Source: Octopus vulgaris
Lineage: Eukaryota
Direction: 5' to 3'
DNA length: 64,000 nt
NCBI GenBank assembly: GCA_951406725.2
Contig: OX597816.1
Span: 81,406,001-81,470,000 of the forward strand
Numbering within the stretch: the stretch's first letter is position 1; each line of letters opens with the position of its first letter. Under the pieces are notes generated by a model that saw only the letters and a list, made by a program, of their open reading frames with translations, searched no databases and was not told the DNA's origin. Shown here one piece after another: positions 16,713-56,854 of this stretch. A program made the translations under genes and the position numbers.

Positions 16713-16769
16713 ATAATTTTTGAACCTGCAACAAGTTCATTTGTTTCCTTGAACGAAAACAAGTCGACG

Positions 16770-17837
16770 ATGAAACAGTCACAGGAAGACATTATAAACC
16801 ATGTGAACGAAGAGACAACAAGAAAATTCTTACCACTGATTATTATCCTATGCTTCATTATGCTGATGGGTGTAATTGGTAACTGCTTAGTCGTCTACAT
16901 CTTTAAGTACAAACTACCTGGCACACCGTCAAGTTTGCTTGTGGTTTACTTGGGCCTTAATCAGATTGTGGACGGCCTGATATGTGTGCCAATGGATATT
17001 TTTCTTCTTTCTCATTCGTATAATTTCCCAGATGATATTCTTTGTCGTTTTATACAAACTTTCATTTTCTCATCGTCTACTATGTCAGGATTGATAATAG
17101 TTGCAATAGCTGTGGATTGCTTTAAAAAGATTTGTCGGCCATTGAAGCGACAGTTTACAAAACAAGATATCCATAGAATTATCGTCTTAATCTTTGTAAT
17201 ATTAATTCTGATTGTGCCCGCACACATGTTCGTAATGGGAGTCAGGGAAGTTCGCACATTCCGTGGAAATGTAACAGGTACTAATTGCTCAATTTCCGAT
17301 AAGAATTCTCCAGCCGTTCCACTCGCTTATTCTGTCTTTCTATTACTTGTGTTTTTGGTGTTAATCATAGTGTTCATTGTAATCTACACTATGGCCTTTA
17401 AGAAACTGAAGACATACAATATAAAAAGGAAATTTTTGTTCGGTAGACTATCAAGAGACAATTCGTCGAAAGAAGAATTTTCAGAATCGGATAAACAATA
17501 TTCCGCGTCAGAAACTAGTTCACAAGTTCGATATCGTAAAAACTATTATGATATAACCCGTATCACACTGAATATGTTTTGTATAACTCTTTCATGGTGT
17601 CTTAGTTTTCTCCCTCATTCTACACTAACTTTCTTAGTTGCAGAAATTATTTTCATAAGACAGTTTATGGCTCCATCAGGAAATTCTTTGGTAAACACTA
17701 GTTTGAATTCTTATTATGTAAACACTATAACCATTCCAATACTTTACATAATCTTCAACCCACTTTTCAGGGAGGAAACTGTGAAATTCTTTAAAAAATA
17801 TGTTTTGTGCAACAGATTTAATAAACCAGAAGAATAA
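16770..17837 (+). CDS. Class A (rhodopsin-like) orphan GPCR, paralogue 1, about 355 aa, single coding exon
   Basis: Seven hydrophobic segments; TM1 GN, C3.25 (LCRF), AIAVDCFKKICRP (DRY-like), ECL2 Cys, SFLP in TM6, IPILY..FNPLFR in TM7/H8; first ATG at 16770 in tcgacgATG context shared with paralogue 3. Confidence 0.9.
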   Translation: MKQSQEDIINHVNEETTRKFLPLIIILCFIMLMGVIGNCLVVYIFKYKLPGTPSSLLVVYLGLNQIVDGLICVPMDIFLLSHSYNFPDDILCRFIQTFIFSSSTMSGLIIVAIAVDCFKKICRPLKRQFTKQDIHRIIVLIFVILILIVPAHMFVMGVREVRTFRGNVTGTNCSISDKNSPAVPLAYSVFLLLVFLVLIIVFIVIYTMAFKKLKTYNIKRKFLFGRLSRDNSSKEEFSESDKQYSASETSSQVRYRKNYYDITRITLNMFCITLSWCLSFLPHSTLTFLVAEIIFIRQFMAPSGNSLVNTSLNSYYVNTITIPILYIIFNPLFREETVKFFKKYVLCNRFNKPEE

Positions 17838-18399
17838 AAATAATGTCTGATTTTTGTTATGTAGCTCTAGATCAGCCTTCATCGAGTCTACCTGGGGTTA
17901 ATGGTTGACAGATGGGTGCAATCCACAGATCCATTGTTTCAGATATACCAAACCTCTGTCTAGTTGAGGATCATATTGTGTATTCGTTCATAAAGGGTTT
18001 TATCTTATAGGGCGTTATCTAGTTACCCTATACTATCTATTTTTCCAGTATACCTTTAAGTTCTTATACTTTACAAAGTTAAAGCAAACAATGTAAACAG
18101 GTCGGAGCGAGGTAGTTTATGTTCCTTTGCACTTATTGTTAACAATGTATATACCAGTGTATCTGGACCAATGAAATATTTTTCAGTTATGTCTGTGTAT
18201 ATGTGTTAATGCGTTTATGTTTGGTTTAAATGAGTAGGAGGAAGTTAAATTTGGGTGGTATTGTATTAGTACCCTGAATTTTGTGGATTTATATTGGTAT
18301 TTGATGATTGCACATTCAGGGACAGGGATAGGATTCAACTGAGTAATATTTAAAATATTTTGAATATTGATTGGACTTTCTCGTCACTACGACGAATGG

Positions 18400-21300
18400 G
18401 AGTCCAGCAAGACCCAGCTACACAGTATTCTAAGTTCGAAGTTTTGTTGTATCCTACTATGTGAGAATTCAGACTTGTTTAGGATTTGCAGTCGTGATGC
18501 CCGTCATTTGGGGTTAGACTTGACCCGGCTCTACGCTAGGCTCTTTTCTTCTACCAGGTGTTACTTCTAGCTACCTCAAACTCAGAGATGACTAGGTAGC
18601 AAGAGTTTCTCTGCTGGGATCTATTCAGTGCTTCCGATTCTTATGTCTTCGTGTTTATCTTGCAGGTTTTTAGGTAGCTCCTCAGAGTATTCTTATAATG
18701 AAGTCGTGGGCGATCTTGATCTCTAGCACTAGAACTAAGCTGGCCAAAGAAAGGAACTTTGGGTAAGCGTCTTCCAAGCGTACCACATGGCCAACCCACT
18801 TCAGTTGCGTTTTGATAAGGAAACTTTCTATTCTCAAAATCCTCTGTGTTTAGGTCTTTGTCCAATTACTTTATGTTGCTAAGTGAATGAAGGTGGCGGA
18901 GATTTGATGAGTTCAGCCTTTTAACATGGCGCCCATAGAGGGTCTATGTTTCACAGCTATATAGGAGAGCAGTAAGCACTCCTGGCTTCATCACTTTGAT
19001 CTTTGTGACCAGGCAGAAGCCATGATCTAGCCTCAATCTGTTCTGGAGTCTACCGAAATATGAGTTTGCCTTAGACAATCGCTGGATGGTTTCTTCGTCC
19101 AGCTTGACATTGTTTTACAGAATGCTTGCCAGGTAGTGGAATTTCGGCACAGTAATTAAAGGGTATTGTCTCCCATAGCAATAGGATCTTGTTTTGGAAG
19201 TCCAGATGCTGGCTGATGCAAGACCTCAGTCTTCCTCAGGTTGACATTTTGCCCGAAGAATTTGGCAACATTAGCAAAACAGTCGAGCAATGTTTGATGT
19301 TCTATAGAGAGAGTGTTATCAGAGCACAAGCATCTCCAAATAGAAACTCCCTCGGAAGACGTTCTTTGACTTTGATGCTGGCTCTAAGACATTGTAAGTT
19401 GAGAATGTTGCCATTGTCCTAAACTGGATATGCACACCTTCGTCAGCATCTCTGAATGTGACTTGAAGCGTGGCTGAGAAGTAGATTACAATCAAAGCAG
19501 GAGCCATTACACAGTCGTGCTTGGTTGCATGCTTTACATGAAATGGACAAGAAATTGAACTACCCACCATCACAGAAGCTATTATATTATTGTAGAATGA
19601 CTTTATTACTGTGACAACCTTTTTTCTGCACACAAGCTTGTGCAGGACTTTCCGGAGTGCATCACGGTTTATCAAATCAAATATTTTTGTTTAATCAACA
19701 AGACTGTGTACGTGTCCTAGTTCTGCTCTCTGGCCTTCTCCTGAACCTGTCATAGTGTAAATTCTTCTTCTACCATGAAGAAAACCGTGATGCGGGTTAC
19801 ACAGTGTTCACAGCGTGAATAATGATCCTGTTAAGCAAGACTGGCGAGTACTTTCCCGGCAGTGGATAAGTATGACATGGCCCGATGGTTGCCGCAACAG
19901 TACACGTTGCTTTTTCGCTTGTGTAAATGTACTAAGGAATCATTGTCCCGGAAATGTTTGTAAACCTTGCCTGGTGTGCTGTCAGAGCCTGCTGACTTCG
20001 CGAACAGCTGTTTTATAGCTTTTTGCAATTCTGACGGGGATGGCTCCAAGTCAAGCTGATCCAAAACAGAGTGTTGTGGGAGGGAATCAATGTTGTCATT
20101 CATTACTGTTGACATCAGGTTTAGGACTGTGCTGCAGTGCTCTTCCCAATGAAAGAAATGTTATTATTGTTTGTAAGTAACTGGGTACCATCTGATATGA
20201 GAACTCGTACATTTCTACGGAACTTGGGTGACACAGATTACCTTGAGACCATCATAGTAGGTCTGCATGTCATGTTTGTCAGCAGCTATCAACAGTTCAC
20301 ATGACATTTTCACATAAGATGTTCTTAATGCCTCTAAGTTTGGTTTGTAGGGCGTGTTTCGCCTGTTGATGATACCTGGCCTTAATTCTTGCTGATGATT
20401 TGACTGAGATGTCAAATCCCTGGTATTTTCTCATCAAACTAGTTTTGATTTTTATGCTTGGTTAAACCAAAAACCTCAGTCACTGTCACATTTTAAGTTG
20501 CTTTAGACTCCCCCAGTATTTTTCATTACACAAAGTGCCATCTAATACGCTGTCCAAAGCTTTGCCCACAATCTACCCTAGTTCAGTGCACGTTGCTTGT
20601 TCCTTGAGTGCAGATATATTGAGCCTCTTCACAGATGTGGCTGTGTATCTAAGTTGCTTGTTCGTAAGCTTTATGTATATGACACTCCTAACAAGCCCGT
20701 GATTTGACCAGCAATTTGCACTTCTATGTGATCTAGTACTGTAAACATCCTTTTGATCACTCTGCCGTACAATCGCATAGTCTATTAGATGCCAATATTT
20801 TGATCTATGGTGCATCCAGGTTCATTTGTGGTTGTTGGAAGATTATTTTAGTAATTGTTAGTTTGAACTCTCATCATTTTATCTGATGGAGTGACAATTA
20901 GAGTTCTACTTTACAATTCCTTGCTTCCATAGTACTCTCTTCTATGTACTCACCCTTACCAACTCCTCTAAGTACTCTACTCAAGTCATCATAGAAGGCT
21001 TCTTTGAATGGTTAGGGCATAGGCACTTCTGATAGTAGCATGCTAGTTAATTGTTAATTCCGAGTGCAACATTATGAGACAGTCATTGACTTCTTTTGGC
21101 AGTGAGATGAGATTGTTAACCGGCTGAACTCGTATGGTAAAACCTTCACCTGCTTGTTCGGGATCCTCTTTGGAATTACCAATTCAAAGGAAGATATAAC
21201 CATCACCGACCTCCTCCAACTGCGCCTCCTCTGTAAATCTTTCTTCACTCCGTACAGCAATGACAATACTGTACCAACTCATTTCTGGCTATTGGACCAG

Positions 21301-21760
21301 TCATGCGCTCTGGTCTGTGTCCCAACGTTCTATGAGCCACAAATCAATCTCCTAGTTTTTGAGTTGTGTCAAAATTTACAAGTTTTCCTGGTTCTTCGAC
21401 TGCATTATTGAGTGACCACACAAGATTTATAGCCTGGCAAGTTCAGGTGCAGCAGGCTTTGTTTATGGTTCCTTTTCAGTTGACTGTCTCCGGATTGGGG
21501 AGAGCAGTGCAGCCATTTAAATAAGCCTGCTCTGTCACCTAAGGAGGATACGAAATCCTCATCAGCTCTAGGTGGAAAACAACTATACCATCACTTTGTG
21601 ACCTTCTGCGTGCAAGGTCAAAGCTCTAGACTTCCAGTTGCATCCTCTGCCTCTTCGTTGCCACTTTCCCTATCGCCACTGGGCTTAGGAAGAAAGTATG
21701 ACGGTATTAGTGCTGGTGTCTTGGTTTGCTGAACTTGCATGATGAGTATATTATAGCTGT
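18400..21760 (-). mobile_element. Near full-length degraded RTE LINE (5' UTR, APE endonuclease, RT)
   Basis: HHRSKYWHLIDYAIVR..DV.STRS..SANCWSNH (EN), KHDCVMAPAL (RT), RPRLHYKNTLRSYLK C-terminus; many stops. Confidence 0.82.
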
Positions 21761-22924
21761 CATAGTTTGTGCGGAGCTAGTCCCACTCTCTCGTCATTCA
21801 AGCTTATATTAGTCTGGTGAAACAAGTGCTACGAGTGTAGTAGTAATCAGGATGCGGGGTTTGTATGCTATTACCTTCTAAAGAACTGGCTTTAAACTGA
21901 ATTCAATAGTGTGACCCTGGTCCGGGAATTCCTGGATTTTGAGGAGTGTGGTACCACTCTCAGCCACTATTTTTCTCAGTACTTTTTTCTGGTATTGAAA
22001 TTGCCTCCTGGAGACGGTCATTCACAAATTTTGTATATAAGTATGAATTTATGCATGTGTCATAGGTTTGTATCTGTGTTTCGTGTGTATGTATCTGCAT
22101 TTGCATGTTTGTGTTCATCCGTGTATCTGTCTATGCATTTCTCACTTTGTAAATATAATGTGAGTGTGTGTGTGTGTGTATGTGTGTCTGTGTGTGTGCG
22201 TGTGTGCATGCGTGTGGTAGCTTTCAGTGCAACTGGTAATGTCTAATCAAGTACAACCTTGTCATAGGCGAGTAAGACAGCACCTCGTCAGACTAGCTTG
22301 GTGAAGAACGTAGCTAGAAACCCAGCAGAATAAAAACAAAACTTGGCAAAAGGAAAGATGACTAGCATACGGTCAACGGCTATCTTGCAATAGATATACT
22401 AGAGGCGGTGAACAAATATGGTGTAAGACTTGACAGAACGTCTGTCTAGAAAAGCAGTTAGATCTCCTTAGCCGTAGAAGGAGTGACCTATTTACCCTAC
22501 CCTGTTATACTATGGATAAGTCCAGGAAAACAAACACTATAAAAGTACATCTCGAAAAAACTTTAGCGGTCATATTTAGGTGGATTTTATCAGAATGGAT
22601 TTTTAGTAACCTCTTGCAGCTGGGAAAAGGTACCAGTCGTCTTGTCTTACCTGGCACTGAGAATTGAAAACAGTAAATAAGTAAATATAAATTTAGCCGT
22701 AATCTCCAGCAATATGGATAAAGAATTTTTGGTCTAATCCGTAGGCCTTGTCGTTGTGATGTTTTGGCTAGCAGGGTCATCCACTCCTCCGTTGTTTTCT
22801 CACTTGTGAATGCACGTTGCTGGCTGTTCTATTGACATTAGCAGCTGCGATTACCTGGTCGCCTGCGCGGGTACGTACTCTGTTATTGCGGCTTTTAAAG
22901 CCGTGCAGTCATAAAAGTATCTAC

Positions 22925-23350
22925 GGATCTTTTCGGTTTGAACAGCAGTTTTTTCTAGCGGTGTCATAGGAAATTGTCACCCATAATTATGACCGTAGTA
23001 TCGATCTATTGCATTTCAATCTGTTTTAGGATTAGGGTTAGTTAGGGTTAGGGGTGGGGAGAGGGTATCTCTTTTTCTTCAGAAATGTAAATAAACCCAA
23101 ACTGTTTCTTAAACGAGGGACATATTCATACGGCACAGAATGTTTTCACCTCATTAGACGTCACTGATTGGTTGAAATTGCAGAAATTGAAGAGAAAAAA
23201 AAACAAATATCTTACAAACTATAGAATTTTCTCAATAAAGCCAAGAGAAAAAGATGCTTTATAAACACATTCTACCAGTATACGAAGTTTAAAAGTGTTT
23301 AGTTACGTGGAAATTATTTCTAAAAACTGCCGTTCAAACCAAAAAGATCC
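22925..23350. mobile_element. MITE with 29-bp TIRs starting GG and an 8-bp TSD (Merlin- or hAT-type)
   Basis: GGATCTTTTCGGTTTGAACAGCAGTTTTT / revcomp GGATCTTTTTGGTTTGAACGGCAGTTTTT; GTATCTAC duplicated at 22917-22924 and 23351-23358. Confidence 0.9.
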
Positions 23351-23586
23351 GTATCTACACTTGAACAAGAGGACGGTTATCATTGAATTCGCTGGACAAA
23401 CTTAAGCAAATGTGTATGCGTCTTTGTATATGTATGTATGTGTGCGTAGGTGCCTGCGTGTGTGTGGTGGGATATGTGCATGTGCGTGTATGCGTGTGTG
23501 TGTGCGTGTGCACGTCCGTATGTGAGTGGGCATGTGCATGTGTGTGTATATGTATGTGAAAGCGGAAATGTACGACAGTGTATGCC

Positions 23587-23588
<2 letters not shown>

Positions 23589-23673
<85 letters not shown>
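23589..23673. repeat. (TG)n microsatellite
   Basis: Direct observation. Confidence 0.95.
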
Positions 23674-23676
<3 letters not shown>

Positions 23677-25018
23677 TATAAATTACTTCTCTGAGATATT
23701 TATAAACGTGATGTCAGTACAACTTGGGAACTAAGGGAGAATACTGGTAAAGGGAGATAACCAAGTGCTTACACAAGGGAAATAATTTCAGTAACTAACT
23801 TGCAAAATTATATATACAGTAAGTACATCGTAACGGATCGAAAATAAATTATATCCCACCACCTTTTTGATGAAGTCATACAACTATACAATTCTGAAGG
23901 GTACACAGATAAGCCTTTTCTTCTCAATGTCAAAAATATTTCATTGCAGAATTATAGTATTCAATAGCGTGTTTTGATACAGAAGCGCAATAAACAGTGG
24001 TATTGAAATTACTCAGACAAGTTTAACATAAACTATCTTAAACAACTCTTAATATAACGAAGAATGGGATGATAAACGAGAAAATAAGATATAGAATTGA
24101 TTCTGAAATAAACGATTTAAAAAAAAAACATTTAATATGAATGAAACGATAGATAATAAATAAGCAAATAAATAAAATATCGTTCTTCTATGTATCATTA
24201 GGGATTTAGTCTTAACTGCTTGTCTAGTATTTTAGAACTGGATGACATAGTTTAAAAGAAGGAAATACGACTGCATCTTGGGAACTGTGTCTGTATTGAA
24301 TTTTGTAGTTGTTACATCTATCATCATCCTTATCATCATCACCATCAACAGAGAACATGAATGTCCGGATGGATAGAGTAAGGGACAGCCAACAGATGAT
24401 ATTCTATACTCAACATTACACGCTATCTGCAGCCAGAATGTTGTACCGTCGACTCCCCCAGATCACTTATCTGTAAACAGCTACTGCAGAACGGAAACAA
24501 GTCGCAAGTTCGAGCAGTAACCTCTTTGTGCATTCGAAAAGTGATTTGTGAGATTGTTGTGCCGAGTTTATTTCCTCCCGTGGGCAAATGTATTATAGAC
24601 CAGTATTTTATGCAAAGGGATATTTATTTATTTCTCATCTACTGAACACTATAAAGGCTGGAAATAAGCAGCAAGAATTGTAAATCATTGTTTTCAAATC
24701 CCACCGAGATAAATTTTACCAGAGTCAATAAAGTATTAGTTAAATGCTGGGGTCCATTTAATCGACTAATCCTCCCTTCTGGAAGTTCAGGCCATTTTTC
24801 CTATGTTGTAAACGATTATATGTTAAATAACTCACAGGAATATGGAGTAATCACATGAAATCTCTCAGGCATGAACTGAATCTACTTTATATATCCAACT
24901 GGTCAGCAAAGTATTTTATGACACTCCCACTTGCTGCTTTAGATAAAGAAAAACGCAAATAAATCTAAGTAAACTTACAAGAGGGTTTATCACAAAAAAT
25001 GTCTTGGTTTAAAACTAT

Positions 25019-28529: not shown

Positions 28530-29038
28530 AATTCATTTTTTTTTTTTTCGTTGTTGGATTTGGTTTGCAAGATTCTTTATGTGAGTTCGTGTGTTGAAGC
28601 ATATTCTGTTGTGTCTGGGGAGAGTCATTTACTTTTTGTGCCTTATAATTTAACACACTCACCGGTAAAATTTTCACTTATCCCTTATTTTTATTTTCCT
28701 AAAATTTTCGTTGCGTCTTGCAACCTTTTCAATAGTCTTGACATATATATATTTATATATATGTAGTGGATCTTGCATGCATGAAGCGGATTCAGTCCAC
28801 CATAGCCAAATTTAAATTAACACTGCAACAGAACTTTTCCCACGGTGGAACAATAATTGTAACGATAAAGTTTTTAGTTGAAGTCGAGTGTCACTAGTTG
28901 TAGCGGAAGAAATTGATTTATAAACAAGACGCAACGAAATTTTTAGGAAAATAAAAATAAGGAATAAGAGGAAATTTTACCGGTGAGTGTGTTAAATTAT
29001 AAGGCACAAAAAGAAAATGATTCTCTCCAGACACAACA
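28530..29038. mobile_element. TA-associated inverted-repeat element (Penelope pLTR-like)
   Basis: 28607-28720 is the reverse complement of 28925-29038; (TA)n at 28742-28762; TTGAAAA-hairpin-GAAA on the minus strand. Confidence 0.6.
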
Positions 29039-31029: not shown

Positions 31030-31116
31030 TATATTAAACATGGAGAAGGCTTTCCACAGGTAATTTTTGAACCTGCAACAATTTCAGTAACAGTAACATG
31101 AAGAAACTATAGAGTT

Positions 31117-32326
31117 ATGAACGATAAGAAAGCAAAAACACTCTTACCAGTGATTATTGTTTTATTCTTCATGATGCTATTTGGTTTTATTGGTAATTGT
31201 TTTGTCGTCTATATTCATCCGCTCAAATCAAAATACTCACCATCCGGTTTGCTTGTGATTTTCCTAGGGTGGAGTCAGATTTTGGGCTGCGTGCTTACCA
31301 ATGAATATTTCTATTCTTTTTCATTCGTATAATTTCCCAGATGATATTGTCTGTCGTTTTATGCAGGCTGTCATTTTCATATCGTCTTCTATGACAGGAA
31401 TGATAGTGTTCACAATCGCTGTGGACCTCTTTAAAAAGGTCTGTCGGCCGTTTAAGCCACAGTTTACAAGTCGATATATTAAGAAGATCATCTTCTGCAC
31501 TCTTATAGTATTAACTATACTTATGCTCGCCAACTTTTATGTTGGCGGGACCAGGCAGGTTCCGATACATTATAAAAATCTAAATGATACTACGTGCTCA
31601 CTTTCCGATAAGATTCCTCAATACTTTGCGTTGTTTTTTTGTTTTGTTTTTTTCTTTTCTTTTCTGTAACATGTTAATAGTATTCGCAATATTGGTGTTT
31701 GTGTTCGTGATGATCTATTCTTCCGTTATTAAACTGAGACACTATGATAAAAATAGGAAAATGCTATTCGACTTTCTAAAACCATCAGTTTTGACAATTG
31801 AAAAATCCTCGATGAATGCTGGCTCAGAAGAACCAGAAACCCAAAAGAAAGTGACAGAATCTAATTCGCAAGTGAATCAAAAACAGAGATATTATCTCAT
31901 AACACGAATCGCACTCAATTTGTTTTTTATTACTCTGTCATGTAAACAAATTCAAAACATTAGAGTTCGCCGGTTAAATATACTAAAACACGGAGTAAAA
32001 GCAACCGTTCTGATCATTTTGGTCGCCATGGGTTTTGCAGTAAATCACTAAATCATCCATAACTTTTGTATTATCCTCTCAAATTGCACCAAATCAGCTA
32101 CATCCTTCATTTCACCCTAACGTTCATAATATCAAAAATGTTTATTATAGAGAAAAATAAGAAATCGCATGAACCCACACTATTCAGCTCATCAATGACT
32201 TATTATTCAAACGATATAACCATCCCAATAATTTACATAGTCTTCAACCCTCCTTTCAGGAGAGATGTTGCTACTTTCTGGAAAAAATATATCTTATGCA
32301 AAAGATTTAATAAACTTGACCAATAA
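31117..32326 (+). pseudogene. Class A GPCR paralogue 2, pseudogene
   Basis: Homologous to paralogues 1 and 3 across four ORF pieces; frameshifts near 31295 and in the T-run at 31631-31665; 152-bp Tc1-derived insertion in TM6. Confidence 0.88.
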
Positions 32327-33138
32327 AATTAACTGCATTGTTGTCGTTATGGAGCCCGAAGTCGGTGCGATCTACAGTTCATTGTTTCAGACAAGCATCT
32401 GTCTAGTAGGAAATTATATTGTATATTCATTTATAAAGTGGTTCATCCTATTGGGTGTTATGTAGTTATCCTTACACGGTCTACTTTCTTTGGGAATGCA
32501 TTTAAAGTCTTGTTGTATATAAAGTTAAAGCAATATAAACTGATCGGAGCATTTATAAGTTGTGCATATTCTAGTGTGTTTGGACGAATAAGATTTTATT
32601 CTATGTGTTGATGTTTTATGATTGATTTGAATGATTGGCAGATGCTTTTGTAGGATAGTACTGTAGGAATCTTCTAGATGTAGTGGATATATACTCTGGT
32701 GATGATTATATAAATAGTGACACACACGATGAGTTCAAAGCAAATAATCTTCAAAATTGTTCGCATAACAAGCGTATGTTTATATCTTTCTCCGTGTGTG
32801 CGTGCGTATCGGGCGTGCGTATCGGGCGTGCGTATCGGGCGTGCGTATCGGGCGTGCGAGCGGGCGGGCGGGCGTGTGTGGTTAACTTGTGGTGCCAAGT
32901 TTAATTCTTTCAGAGGATAAAAATCTAATATAGATTAACGCTCATCTCTCATCCACTTGCTATAAAAACTGGAGGTAAGCAGCAAGAATTGTGGATTAAT
33001 TGGTTTCAGATAAATAAAAGCAGGCAATAGATGAACGTAATAAATTTACGAACATTTGGTCAGTAAAACTCCTTTGATTTCAAATTATATAAACTTGTGC
33101 TTTTGTAAACATCCTCTTTATACATTTTTATAGAAAAG

Positions 33139-39004: not shown

Positions 39005-39078
39005 GGGCTGTTTAGCTTAATGGTAAAGCACTTGGCCAGTGTTTTCAAGAGACGTGGGTTCCAATCCCATGGCTGTTT
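39005..39078 (+). pseudogene. tRNA-like sequence (pseudo-tRNA or SINE head)
   Basis: A box TAGCTTAATGGTAAAGC, T-arm GTGGGTTCCAATCCCAT; poor acceptor stem and enlarged anticodon loop. Confidence 0.5.
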
Positions 39079-46938: not shown

Positions 46939-48018
46939 ATGAATAAATCAGATTCTGAACGTTTGACTGCTTTTAACCAACAGGAAGTCGAAAAGCGCCT
47001 AGCTATTATTACTCTTTTATCCATTTTTATGATAATGGGTATTATTGGTAATAGTTTAATAGTCTACATTCATATTTGCAAATTAAATCGAACAGCATCC
47101 ACTTTGCTTATTATTTTCTTTGGCTGGAGTCAAATTTTTACCAGCGCGATATGTATACCAATGGATATTGTTTTTCTTCTTTATTCATATATTTTCACAA
47201 ATAGCTTTCTTTGTCGTATTATGCAGTCTACCATTTTTATGTCAGCTTTTGTATCAGGATTGATAATATTCACAATTGCTATAGATCGGTTTAAAAGAGT
47301 ATGCCGGCCGTTTGCAACACAATTTAATCGTAAGGATGTCAAGAAGCTCATCTGGTTAAACATTGTAATAACGACTATACCGATGACTGTCAACTTTTAT
47401 GTTTGTGGAATTAAAAAAATTCCCTTGTATAATAACTTAATCGGTCACATGTGCTCAATGTCAGATAAAGCAAATCCACGTGTGGTATACAGTTTCTTCA
47501 TTTTTATGCTAGTACTATGCGTGGTGTTAGTGCTGACGTTCATCATAATTTATTCTACAATATTTATGAAGCTGAGGGAATACAGTAAACGTAAGAGATT
47601 GTTGGCCTCCCTTCAACCGTCAATTTCAAAAGTTAGTGAAATAACCTCGTCGAGAGAGGAACATTTAGAACCAACGATAAGTAAAGATTCATTATTCCAA
47701 CCCATGCAACGCAGAAGATATTATATTGCCACAACCCGAATCACATTCAATATGTTTTGTATAACTCTTTCATGGTGTCTTACCTACATTCCTTATTTCA
47801 CAGTAACTTTCTTAACTACAAAAATAAATGTCAGAAGAGTCGGTTGGAAACCTACTGAGGACATATTTTATGAAATAGCTGATCATTCTTACTATATAAA
47901 CGCTGTCATCATTCCAATAATTTACGTAATCTTCAACCCACCTTTCAGGAGAGAAGTTATTACCCTCTTCAAACGATATATTTTGTGCACCATAAGTAAT
48001 AAACCAGACGAAAATTAG
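46939..48018 (+). CDS. Class A (rhodopsin-like) orphan GPCR, paralogue 3, about 359 aa, single coding exon
   Basis: 7TM; GN in TM1, LCRI (C3.25), IAIDRFKRVCRP, ECL2 HMCS, TYIP in TM6, IPIIY..FNPPFR; acceptor ttttacctcttacAG at 46910; tcgacgATG start (ORF-track Met at 46873 is probably intronic). Confidence 0.9.
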   Translation: MNKSDSERLTAFNQQEVEKRLAIITLLSIFMIMGIIGNSLIVYIHICKLNRTASTLLIIFFGWSQIFTSAICIPMDIVFLLYSYIFTNSFLCRIMQSTIFMSAFVSGLIIFTIAIDRFKRVCRPFATQFNRKDVKKLIWLNIVITTIPMTVNFYVCGIKKIPLYNNLIGHMCSMSDKANPRVVYSFFIFMLVLCVVLVLTFIIIYSTIFMKLREYSKRKRLLASLQPSISKVSEITSSREEHLEPTISKDSLFQPMQRRRYYIATTRITFNMFCITLSWCLTYIPYFTVTFLTTKINVRRVGWKPTEDIFYEIADHSYYINAVIIPIIYVIFNPPFRREVITLFKRYILCTISNKPDEN

Positions 48019-48370: not shown

Positions 48371-48539
48371 ACACACATATTTGTATTTATATATATATAT
48401 ATATATTGGCCTGCTCGCTTAGCCAGCGGGGTAGCATCATTTGAAGCGCATTGTGACCAGCGATGTGTAGCAACATCTGATAGCCTGATCGATCACGGTG
48501 ATCACAGTGATATATATATATACATACATATACATAGAA

Positions 48540-48930
48540 ATATCATTATTTCCAAATTTCTAATTCTCTCTAAAGGAGACTACGGCAGCGGTACTGAATA
48601 TTAATAGTTACCGCTAAGTGGTAGTCCAGAAAAACAGGACGAATGATGAGGTTGATTAGCTCCAAGAGGCCATCACCTCTAGCTAGCTGTGTGACACACA
48701 AACTGAGTCCATTATAACCTTATAGCAGGGGAGGTCAGCAGGTTCCCCTTGCTGGTCTGGCAACCACAGACTAGTTTCGAGGTGGTTGCCTCTTATCAAT
48801 GTGGAGTAGCCGAACCCAACAGGCGTCGCTGCAGACCGACAAACTAGAGGCGATGGCCTCTTCGAGCTAATCAACGGCAGCATTCGTTTATTTTTCTGAA
48901 CTGCCATGTTAGCTTAGCGATAACTATTAA
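48540..48930. mobile_element. (TA)n-flanked non-coding inverted-repeat element carrying a hammerhead
   Basis: 48601-48682 is an imperfect reverse complement of 48844-48930; distant homology to the 53787 element (ttagctcca.gaggccatc.cct, acacaaactg..tcca...taacctt). Confidence 0.75.
48764..48804 (-). ncRNA. Minimal type I hammerhead ribozyme, U3-A8 core variant
   Basis: ccaca-TTGATAA-gagg caacca cctc-GAAA-ctag-TC-tgtgg: perfect stems I and II, palindromic stem III, GUC triplet. Confidence 0.75.
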
Positions 48931-49124
48931 CATATATATATATTATGCACGTACGCTGCGAAATATATAATAAACCTTTACGTAAATAAATAACGTGATA
49001 TACACGAAGGGACGAACAAAAAGACAAACGGGTTATTCAAAGCCTTCATTCTTCAGTCAGAAACTGATCCCTCATCGCAGATTTCGGCTGTTTAATTCTG
49101 AGATCCGCTCTGAATCAGCCAGCC

Positions 49125-53728: not shown

Positions 53729-53791
<63 letters not shown>

Positions 53792-53954
53792 GTTATCGCC
53801 ATACTAATATGGCATTCTTATAAAAATAAGAATAAAGCTGTCCGCTTATTAGCTCCATGAGGCCATCGCCTTAAGTTAGCTATTTGATACACAAACTGTA
53901 TCCATATAACCTTTGAACAAGGGAGGTCAGTCGCTCCACACTACTTGGCCGGCA

Positions 53955-53996
53955 GCTACAGACGCGTTTCGGGGTATTGCCCCTTTTCAATGCAGC
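53955..53996 (-). ncRNA. Minimal type I hammerhead ribozyme, U3-A8 core variant
   Basis: gctgca-TTGAAAA-gggg caata cccc-GAAA-cgcg-TC-tgtagc on the minus strand. Confidence 0.75.
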
Positions 53997-54452
53997 GTAG
54001 CCATACCAGTAGGTGTCGCTTCTGACGATCTCTGTTCAAAGGTTTTATTTACCTAGCTTCGGTGGAATACATCCACTTGTTTTCAATAATAGAAATATTA
54101 AAATTACTAAAAAGGGGCAATACCCCGAAACGCGTCTGTAGCTGCCGGCCAAGTAGTGTGGAGCGACTGACCTCCCTTGTTCAAAGGTTATATGGATACA
54201 GTTTGTGTATCAAATAGCCAACTTAAGGCGATGGCCTCATGGAGCTAATAAGCGGACAGCTTTATTCTAATTTTTATAAGAATGCCATATTAGTATGGCG
54301 ATAACTATTATTTTCCGGGAACGCTGCCGTTGTTCTCTTTTAGAGAGACTTAGTAATTTTAATATTTCTATTATTGAAAACAAGTGGATGTATTCCACCG
54401 AAGCTAGGTAAATAAAACCTTTGAACAGAGATCGTCAGAAGCGACACCTACT

Positions 54453-56267
54453 GTGTTAGCAGAAAGGTTGAAGGTCGTCATGGAAAAACTTGTCGGAAAG
54501 GCACAGACATGTGCAATCCCAGGCAGGTCGATCGAAGATAATCTTCACCTTCTACGCTACACTATAGACAGGGTTGGGCAATTAGCCGGCAAAGGAGGGG
54601 CATTGGTCCATTTAGACCAAAGTAAAGCATTTGATAGGGTAGATCATCAGTACCTGGCGACGGTTCTCGAAGCGGCTGGGCTAGGTCCTGACTTTCGCGG
54701 GTGGATATCAGCTATGTACAGCGGTATCAAGTCCACAGTCCAGATAAACGGTTACTTAACGGAACCGTTTTCGATTAAGCGTTCAGTTCGTCAAGGATGT
54801 CCCTTGTCCCCTCTCCTGTACGTTTTGGCTCTTGAGCCATTGCTGCGGAAGTTGGAGACGGTGAGATGCAATCCTAATGAAATCGGATGCGGTAAGTCTG
54901 TTTCTGCGTATGCGGATGACGTCACCTTCATCGTGTCCAACGAAGCACAACTAACTCGTGTAGAAGGTGCTCTCCGAAGATACGAAGCGGTGGCTGGGGC
55001 AAAAGTTAACAAGGACAAGTCCACTGGTTTGCGCCTCGGCACCTGGAGGAACAAGCCGATATCGTCCAGTGTTGTTGGACACTGGACAGATGGTCCTGTT
55101 AAATTGCTTGGAGTTTGGTTTGGTTCAGACTCCCAGACGGAGAAAAATTGGAGCGAGGTAGTGACCAAGGTAGAAGCCATAGTTCGGGAGTGGTCCGGAA
55201 GGCATCTTTCCTTGAAAGGGAGGGCGGAGGTGGTACAGGTGTTTATAGCATCTGTAATCACCTATCGCCTGACTGTCGTGCCTTGCCCCGATTTGTGGCT
55301 AAGCAAGTTGGATCGACTCCTTTTCCGCTTTTTGTGGAAGGGAAGAAAGCCACTTGTAAGGCGCTCCGTGTGTTGCCAGGAACCACTAAAGGGTGGGCTG
55401 GGGATGCCTTGGTTAATGATGCGCAGGCATGCGCTGAGACTGAGACATCTCTGGTTTCACCTGGAAGGTGATAAGGTGTGGAGTCCGCTGGCAGATAATT
55501 TCTTCCCGCAACCGGACTCTATGGAGAGATTTAAACCCGGTTTCATTAAAAGACGGAACCTGACTTTATGGCAGAAAGAGTGCCGACAGGCACTCTGGCT
55601 GATCCACAAGATAGGCAAAGCCGGCTGCGGGAATACCACCTCGACATTTTATAGAAGGATGGTAGAGGCAAAAAATGACGACGTCCTAAGAGGGGCTCTG
55701 GGGTTCGATGAGGATCAACTATCCGACCTGTTTAAGAAGACTTTCAAGCCGGGGTATTTGGACAATTACCAAAAATCCCTGACTTGGCAGTGCTATAGGA
55801 ATGCTCTACCTGTTCGCGATAAGTTATATAGGCATGGAATGTCAGTGCCACCGACATGTCCAAGATGTGGGTTGGACGATGAAACCGTCCAGCACGCTTT
55901 TGTACATTGTCAGGAGCTGTCAGGCTTAATAAGTTACGTAGAACACGTGTTGTCGCATCTGGGACGAGTACAGCTATCGGCTGGTTCTATAATAAAGATG
56001 ATACCGCCAGCTGGACTCTCAAAGGAAGGTGAGGCTTGTTTTCACTGTACGGTGGCAGTACTGAAAGAGTGTGTGTGGAGAACTAGATTGGAAGGTTTGG
56101 TGTCAGGAACCTTTGTCTCTGGATATGGTATGTTAAAATACTTCAGATACCATCTAAAGAGCAAGATGGATTTAGAGAAGAGGAACCTGACACAGAAAAA
56201 GTATGTGAATCGATGGAAGGATGTGATAAAAAAGGTGGGTGTGAGTAACCCTGCTTGGTCATCATGA
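54453..56267 (+). CDS. Tx1/L1-type ORF2 (RT plus C-terminal zinc finger), N-terminally truncated
   Basis: LDQSKAFDRV, VRQGCPLSPLLY, AYADDVT, GGLGMP, CPRC..DETVQHAFVHC; 604 codons without a stop, but no endonuclease domain and no true start. Confidence 0.85.
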   Translation: MLAERLKVVMEKLVGKAQTCAIPGRSIEDNLHLLRYTIDRVGQLAGKGGALVHLDQSKAFDRVDHQYLATVLEAAGLGPDFRGWISAMYSGIKSTVQINGYLTEPFSIKRSVRQGCPLSPLLYVLALEPLLRKLETVRCNPNEIGCGKSVSAYADDVTFIVSNEAQLTRVEGALRRYEAVAGAKVNKDKSTGLRLGTWRNKPISSSVVGHWTDGPVKLLGVWFGSDSQTEKNWSEVVTKVEAIVREWSGRHLSLKGRAEVVQVFIASVITYRLTVVPCPDLWLSKLDRLLFRFLWKGRKPLVRRSVCCQEPLKGGLGMPWLMMRRHALRLRHLWFHLEGDKVWSPLADNFFPQPDSMERFKPGFIKRRNLTLWQKECRQALWLIHKIGKAGCGNTTSTFYRRMVEAKNDDVLRGALGFDEDQLSDLFKKTFKPGYLDNYQKSLTWQCYRNALPVRDKLYRHGMSVPPTCPRCGLDDETVQHAFVHCQELSGLISYVEHVLSHLGRVQLSAGSIIKMIPPAGLSKEGEACFHCTVAVLKECVWRTRLEGLVSGTFVSGYGMLKYFRYHLKSKMDLEKRNLTQKKYVNRWKDVIKKVGVSNPAWSS

Positions 56268-56502
56268 AGGGAGAAAATAGTCTCTGGGCTCTTAGGCTGT
56301 CGGGTAAGAATCCTGACTGTGATATACCTAGCTGGCCAAAATCATTTTTAATTTAAAAAAAAAGGAGAAAAGTAAAGTCTAGTATCATAATCAATAATCA
56401 ACATATGTAAATATCAAACGAACAACGTAAACTTTTTGTAATTATGTTTTGTATTGTAATGTACTATCTCTGTAAGATTTTTATAATCATAATAAAGATT
56501 TA
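54454..56502 (+). mobile_element. Young 5'-truncated Tx1-clade LINE with a 17-bp TSD
   Basis: AGAAGCGACACCTACTG at 54437-54453 and 56503-56519; AATAAA at the 3' end; uninterrupted ORF. Confidence 0.92.
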
Positions 56503-56529
56503 AGAAGCGACACCTACTGGTCTGGCTAC

Positions 56530-56571
56530 GCTGCATTGAAAAGGGGCAATACCCCGAAACGCGTCTGTAGC
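56530..56571 (+). ncRNA. Minimal type I hammerhead ribozyme, U3-A8 core variant (predicted cleavage after 56565)
   Basis: gctgca-TTGAAAA-gggg caata cccc-GAAA-cgcg-TC-tgtagc; 6-bp stem I with one GU pair. Confidence 0.78.
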
Positions 56572-56854
56572 TGCCGGCCAAGTAGTGTGGAGCGACTGAC
56601 CTCCCTTGTTCAAAGGTTATATGGATACAGTTTGTGTATCAAATAGCTAACTTAAGGCGATGGCCTCATGGAGCTAATAAGCGGACAGCTTTATTCTTAT
56701 TTTTATAAGAATGCCATATTAGTATGGCGATAACTATTATTTTCCGGGAACGCTGCCGTTGTTCTCTTTTAGAGAGACTTAGTAATTTTAATATTTCTAT
56801 TATATATATATATATTTATATATATATTTATTTATATATATATATACATATATA

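Follow-up and report, generated by a model that had tools for sequence, protein, structure and literature searches.

A probable non-autonomous Penelope-like hammerhead retrozyme in octopus, present as an aged insertion downstream of a receptor gene

The closest described relatives of the element reported here are the non-LTR retrozymes of animals, which self-cleave, form circular RNA and have monomers of 150–450 bp (350–390 bp in mussel; PMC7229834). On phylogenetic grounds they have been proposed to be non-autonomous Penelope-like elements (PLEs; bioRxiv 10.64898/2026.07.22.740005). PLEs themselves carry minimal hammerheads (min-HHRs), which cleave poorly in vitro; a U3-A8 core is found in about 1,300 PLE motifs of Schistosoma mansoni (Cercyon), and also in Saccoglossus (PMC4209133). 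The U3-A8 pair is a natural covariation of the hammerhead and is active in vitro (PMC3088659, section 8). Another relevant ribozyme is N79, which is derived from Sm1 and represents the Schistosoma type (PMC12550524, PMC7118274). The signature of PLE insertions consists of partial tandems, a 5′-truncated copy in inverted orientation and a one-sided tail, and the Naiads of octopus prefer (TA)n targets (PMC8557442). For a PLE of anole it was reported that reverse transcription starts at two sites, at AT-rich nicks, and that the tail corresponds to the sequence lying between them; the ribozyme of this PLE depended on protein, and insertion in vitro also took place without it (PMC11167929). Here and below, these systems are described as in the accessible parts of the cited sources.

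A window of 64,000 nucleotides of Octopus vulgaris DNA, the whole stretch that was analysed, contains a type I hammerhead motif with a U3-A8 core and a palindromic helix III at 48804–48764 on the minus strand, within a repeat that will be called element A. The motif is composed of stem I (CCACA/UGUGG), the core UUGAUAA with U3 and A8, stem II (GAGG/CCUC) with the 6-nt loop II CAACCA, and, after stem II, GAAA, CUAG and UC; helix III is the palindrome ACUAGU. Helix II has 4 bp, and cleavage is predicted after C17, which is position 48769. It was verified that all letters given in an earlier note on this DNA are correct, i.e., ccaca/tgtgg, gagg/cctc and ctag, with TTGA.AA, GAAA and GTC invariant between this motif and a family at 53787 and only N7 changing. 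The conserved core (positions 3–9, 12–14, A15.1-U16.1 and H17) is complete with its U3-A8 pair, and three helices are present, of which helix I is open-ended, as is typical of the type I layout. Including the distal part of stem I, the motif extends over 48759–48811 (minus strand), with GGC and the bulge UAC preceding stem I and U-GCC following it. These flanking letters are identical in all three copies of the window, and the sixth pair of stem I (48805/48763) is broken in element A.

The hammerhead descriptor matched the 64-kb window three times only, once in element A and twice in a second repeat, element B, against a mean of 0.09 loose and 0 strict matches in 100 block-shuffled windows. 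Judged by its letters, the motif is a real hammerhead of a known variant type, and self-cleavage is predicted. The Rfam hammerhead models gave no match to the window at E values up to 1, nor to the motif of either element at E values up to 10. Otherwise, the Rfam scan of the window yielded microsatellite-driven miRNA matches and one tRNA-like match only. The latter lies at 39006–39078 (plus strand), scores above the gathering score (40.2 bits), and may be a tRNA gene or the head of a SINE. A degenerate U3-A8 pattern was also run against other collections, with no match in viral contigs and two in metagenome contigs, which were judged to be chance matches because they are devoid of stem I, lie in sequence of 50–59% GC and have nothing else in common with the element.

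The canonical geometry, i.e., a helix I of 6 bp, a helix II of 4 bp and a short palindromic helix III, is fully present in element B, and element A has a helix I of 5 bp. The same type I geometry is that of the non-LTR retrozymes of coral, mussel and axolotl, which are likewise short, ORF-less tandems with a strongly self-paired monomer; they differ in having a C3-G8 core, whereas elements A and B have U3-A8, an octopus as host, and copies with PLE-type inversion, a tail and (TA)n flanks (PMC7229834). The U3-A8 min-HHRs of PLEs share the core pair, the type I layout, a palindromic 15.2/16.2, the PLE-type repeat and copies on opposite strands, but in them position 9 is followed by a bulge, helix II is longer and helix III is without a loop (PMC4209133). 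In the octopus motifs A9 is directly followed by G10.1, helix II comprises 4 bp and helix III is a 6-nt palindrome, and by this geometry the motif is classified as a canonical, retrozyme-type hammerhead and not as a minimal one. The N79 ribozyme of the Schistosoma Sm1/Sm-alpha type resembles the family in having a stem I of 6 bp that is immediately preceded by UAC, a 4-bp stem II, an unpaired U 3′ of stem I, and a loop II whose letters (CAAAUA) are found among the family variants. It differs in its C3-G8 core, and in element A loop II reads CAACCA and stem I has 5 bp (PMC12550524). By analogy, tertiary contacts between loop II and the stem I bulge may be expected in the family hammerhead. No report of this hammerhead or retrozyme family from octopus was found in a search of the openly accessible literature, and the words “ribozyme” and “retrozyme” do not occur in the main text of the O. 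vulgaris repeat annotation (PMC13282606). None of the components is new in kind, and such families may still stand in the supplements of PMC7229834 and PMC4209133.

The main copy of element A is 5′-truncated and extends over 48536–48843 on the minus strand; it is thus read from right to left, with its 3′ end toward a TA run on the left. The earlier note had regarded its hammerhead as belonging to a second family, distinct from that at 53787. This separation could not be upheld, as element A and positions 56503–56803 of element B are homologous from end to end, including the 3′ terminus and the tail (218 of 309 columns identical), and blastn gave 71–75% identity over about 300 nt. By this similarity element A represents a subfamily that has diverged from the 53787 element, and not a separate family. 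Element B itself consists of an inverted copy at 53787–54110 (minus strand), which has no tail, and a partial tandem at 54110–56803 (plus strand), which has one. The inverted copy is 99–100% complementary to the plus-strand copies, contains an intact hammerhead at 53996–53955 and has a predicted fold with z = -6.1; the hammerhead of the tandem is located at 56530–56571. Both have the stem I GCUGCA/UGUAGC, the stem II GGGG/CCCC, the helix III CGCG and the loop II CAAUA. Element B contains one whole monomer from tail to tail, which is 363 nt long and has no ORF. Element A is seen as one truncated monomer only, and a tandem, ORF-less state is ascribed to it from element B.

The partial tandem of element B is split by a nested, 5′-truncated LINE at 54454–56502 (plus strand) with RVT_1 and zf-RVT domains. 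The LINE has its own target-site duplication of 16–17 bp (54437–54453 = 56503–56519), and the reverse transcriptase ORF inside element B is that of the LINE. Its clade would be L1/Tx1-like. The LINE has an open frame of 619 codons, and its target duplication ends 10 nt 5′ of the stem I of the hammerhead. If other copies of the LINE use the same site, a ribozyme repeat would be the target of this LINE, for which a single case is no proof.

The earlier note had described the motif as lying in the loop of an imperfect inverted repeat of about 85 bp between TA runs, which was borne out by an alignment of the arms (48602–48683 and 48844–48929), with 70 matches, 10 mismatches and 8 gap columns. The left arm (minus strand) is the 3′ part of the main copy, and the right arm (plus strand) is a second, heavily 5′-truncated, inverted copy of the 3′ end without a tail. 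The 86 nt of the right arm can also be aligned to element B, at its 3′ end, with 71 matches and 13 mismatches. A tail of 66 nt at 48536–48601 (minus strand), which follows the shared 3′ terminus, is present at the left end only; it is homologous to the 64-nt tail of element B (56740–56803), and it is absent from the right arm of A and from the left end of B. The insertion is bordered by target remnants, a (TA)n/(TACA)n run at 48510–48535 and a (TA)n run at 48930–48945, and all four ends of elements A and B abut TA runs. Both elements are alike in plan, with the same 3′ terminus, an outward-facing inverted copy without a tail, and a tail on one side. Taken by its anatomy, the inverted repeat is the 3′ end of the element present twice and facing outward, which is the insertion signature of the PLE type. 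The insertions of EN+ PLEs (Penelope/Poseidon, Neptune and Naiad) share with it the 5′ truncation, partial tandems, an inverted truncated copy, a one-sided tail and (TA)n; they differ in encoding an RT-endonuclease ORF, and elements A and B are without one (PMC8557442, PMC11167929). The tail of 64–66 nt is longer than the 30–40 bp reported for PLE insertions (PMC8557442).

Two observations concern the surroundings of element A. Between two TA runs on its left lies an island of 103 nt (48407–48509), which is GC-richer, has no other copy in the window and is without coverage by the fitted contigs described below. On the right TA run of the insertion another very abundant repeat is located (48946–49113), which also has no other copy in the window and reaches a summed depth of more than 100,000 over 48955–49038 in the sequencing runs X1 and X4.

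Part of the stretch was found in 20 of the 24 listed sequencing runs, from 11 studies. In four runs 2414 (X1), 2348 (X4), 1627 (X7) and 183 (X8) contigs were fitted, which carry three species labels; no contig of these four runs covers 48430–48534. Element A belongs to an abundant, high-copy family. The summed depth at helix II was 17,000–24,000 in X1, compared to 24–80 for single listed contigs, a figure that is not a copy number, and the summed depth falls toward the 5′ end, a fall that is confounded by the likeness cut-off. At the two ends of the right arm, family contigs run on into the body and the tail. Among the 15 joints listed, 10 connect opposite strands; seven of these touch the right arm and could be artefacts of mapping to a repeat, and therefore only the three that lie wholly inside the body were counted as strand switches. 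This indicated that the inversion points vary across the copies of the family.

Taken together, the locus is most probably an old insertion, and the octopus retroelement that it stems from would be a non-LTR retrozyme, namely a non-autonomous PLE that is non-coding, bears a hammerhead and is present in many copies. The unit of element B fits a retrozyme, because it is 363 nt long, is ORF-less and falls within the size range reported for animals. In the proposed mechanism, tandem source loci would be transcribed on the strand of the ribozyme, and the type I hammerhead would cut after GUC, aided by dimer formation via the palindromic helix III and by contacts between loop II and the stem I bulge. 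The product, by analogy with the cleavage and circles of other animal retrozymes, would be a circularisable, unit-length RNA of about 360 nt. A PLE RT-endonuclease acting in trans would then nick (TA)n and, following the biochemistry of PLEs, start cDNA synthesis at two sites separated by about 65 nt, and finally two 5′-truncated cDNAs would be joined head to head, with their 3′ ends outward and the tail on one of them. The inverted repeat is explained as the product of this joining, and an anatomy with outward 3′ ends and one tail is present twice in the window. No GIY-YIG-like motif of an autonomous PLE partner was detected in six frames of the 64-kb window. As for Naiad_Obim and Naiad_Ovul as possible partners, the accessible part of the supplement of PMC8557442 contained no match to short motifs of the element, and the 3′ end of Naiad_Obim that is displayed there is, by eye, unlike that of elements A and B.

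A possible alternative would be that element A is a remnant of the 3′ pLTR of an autonomous PLE with RT and GIY-YIG domains, and that element B is a short tandem derived from such a pLTR. Most genomic PLE hammerheads are indeed single motifs in truncated copies, which also occur as opposite-strand pairs (PMC4209133), PLEs make up 6.83% of the O. vulgaris assembly (supplement of PMC13282606), and the upstream part of element A is lost at 48843. However, element B comprises a whole 363-nt monomer from tail to tail without an ORF, and the hammerheads have the canonical retrozyme geometry and lack two features that most metazoan PLE min-HHRs have, a long helix II and a bulge behind position 9. This alternative is thus considered to be rather unlikely. 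An insertion of a MITE-like DNA transposon at TA, with terminal inverted repeats of about 85 bp and a chance hammerhead, could account for the imperfect inverted repeat at both ends, the TA flanks and the strong predicted hairpin (z = -10.7), but it is very improbable, because the contigs of the family extend past the right arm to reach the body and the tail, and, in addition, 66 nt of the element lie outside of the left arm, the inverted part of element B exceeds 200 nt and has a different start, and at 3 of the 15 joints listed the strand is switched at a place within the body alone.

Next to the preferred reading, a non-autonomous PLE retrozyme, stands a more specific one, which is held tentatively and judged to be slightly less probable than not. 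It states that the family could be an undescribed, high-copy octopus lineage of retrozymes that combines the rare U3-A8 core with the full tertiary architecture of the Schistosoma type, gives rise to circular RNAs of about 360 nt, leaves the complete PLE footprint and is invisible to Rfam. The loop II variants of the family point toward CAAAUA, with L4 at 54–85% and L5 at 35–74% of depth, the variants being unphased.

The earlier note had claimed full covariation of the motif with the 53787 family. This turned out to be too strong, as the covariation is only partial: when the 15 pairs were compared between the copies of A and B, three showed double-sided changes (I4, 10.2/11.2 and the centre of helix III), one a one-sided change, ten were invariant and one was unpaired in element A. 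In the tally 44 of 45 cells were paired, compared to 29–62% in slid controls; it comprises three sequences, two of which are nearly identical, so that little weight can be given to its shuffle figure (16/500). More informative was a null simulation in which sites were substituted at random, at the rate seen between A and B (0.25 per site). It retained an intact core in 3% of the trials, and an intact core together with all 11 pairs and at least three double changes in 10 of 2,000,000 trials.

Within the family, the pair 10.2/11.2 switches from A-U to G-C at matched depth on both sides in all four runs (39/43, 34/37, 46/42 and 55/58%), and the variant frequencies at I4/I4′ match poorly (4–24% versus 45–87%). 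The variants listed touched none of the 14 core sites, compared to 8 of the 29 sites outside the core (one-sided Fisher test, p = 0.03). The compensatory variants and the invariance of the core sites indicated that the hammerhead fold is under selection in the mobile family, a conclusion that is drawn with cautions, as it refers to the listed variants only and the contig variants are unphased. The ribozyme of the family is probably active. The proposal of the earlier note that the pattern is that of a selected ribozyme fold thus holds at the level of the family, where it agrees with the null simulation and with the switching at 10.2/11.2; selection is not visible on the copy in element A, in which the sixth stem I pair is broken and a competing fold is predicted.

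In element A, 14 listed sites in 236 nt differ from the family majority. None of them is located inside the 41-nt motif, an absence that is not significant (P = 0.08). Just outside, the letter at 48763 is a pairing one in 91–100% of the family depth, which restores the sixth pair of stem I. In element A this pair is lost (5 bp are left), and the same change completes a competing hairpin of 9 bp, a perfect inverted repeat within the ribozyme (48759–48767/48782–48790). The minority letter at 48763 could have arisen by a templated (quasi-palindrome) mutation. The predicted probability of the hammerhead stems was 0.15–0.94 when a short context was folded and 0 when the whole element was, compared to 0.72–0.98 in element B. 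The isolated 41-nt motif of A did not fold better than shuffled sequences (z = -1.3), and the same was true for a 156-nt context (z = -0.1), compared to z = -6.2 for element B. For element B, the predicted co-fold was a double hammerhead (-40.7 kcal/mol versus -34.6 kcal/mol for two monomers). The copy in element A has thus decayed and is predicted to misfold, and it is unlikely that it is active in vivo. At 8 of the 10 arm mismatches most of the family depth departs from one of the arms, and both arms carry a minority A (48615/48916) at a site where 91–100% of the family depth is G. The shared minority A and the mismatches against the family majority suggest that both arms were made from one template and decayed later.

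The insertion lies in the vicinity of a single-ORF, rhodopsin-family GPCR gene at 46939–48018 (plus strand; 7tm_1, E = 3e-14), which was found to be 100% identical to an NCBI protein named from Octopus sinensis and to have four close relatives only in the homology search. It is the third member of a cluster of such single-ORF genes (16713–17837, about 31089–32366 and 46939–48018), which are about 70% alike in DNA. The position given in the earlier note, about 0.5 kb downstream of GPCR3 and antisense to it, was confirmed, since element A starts 518 nt after the stop codon of the 7tm_1 ORF and is on the opposite strand. A part of the GPCR or of the inverted repeat in the function of the motif found no support. 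A-to-I editing is heavy in cephalopods. A co-option of element A as a regulator of the GPCR, acting either through an antisense ribozyme or through a hairpin in the 3′ UTR that is open to editing, would be in line with the short distance to the stop codon and with the long hairpin that the sense strand could form, but it is hardly credible, as a ribozyme antisense to the GPCR mRNA would not cut it in cis, the two other paralogues of the window have no such element nearby, the copy departs from the majority at 14 of 236 sites with no significant sparing of the motif, the arms have drifted apart without covariation between them, and the stem probability ranges from 0.0 to 0.94 depending on context, compared to the values of element B given above. 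The copy in element A thus probably has no role for the GPCR, which is regarded as a bystander, and a single copy beside a GPCR is unremarkable in itself.

The interest of the locus lies in the family. Provided that the retrozyme reading is correct, cephalopods would be added to the hosts of hammerhead retrozymes, and, on the more specific reading given above, the anatomy of the insertions would be direct evidence for the integration of retrozymes by PLE proteins, for which the accessible literature has so far drawn on phylogeny and co-occurrence. The combination of tail and inversion would offer a clean test of which enzyme moves the retrozymes of animals. Natural U3-A8 ribozymes in several covarying subfamilies would allow testing how well the peripheral contacts tolerate a changed core pair, and the family would represent an abundant class of ribozymes that is missed by the Rfam models.

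A third, unrelated inverted insertion was observed elsewhere in the window, at 28607–28744 (minus strand) and 28925–29038 (plus strand), with arms that are 94% alike, and it also lies beside a TA run. Its minus-strand copy contains a U3-A8 core at 28735–28699 with a bulge after position 9, a long helix II and weak helices I and III, and this motif is nearer to the classic PLE minimal hammerhead than the motifs of elements A and B.
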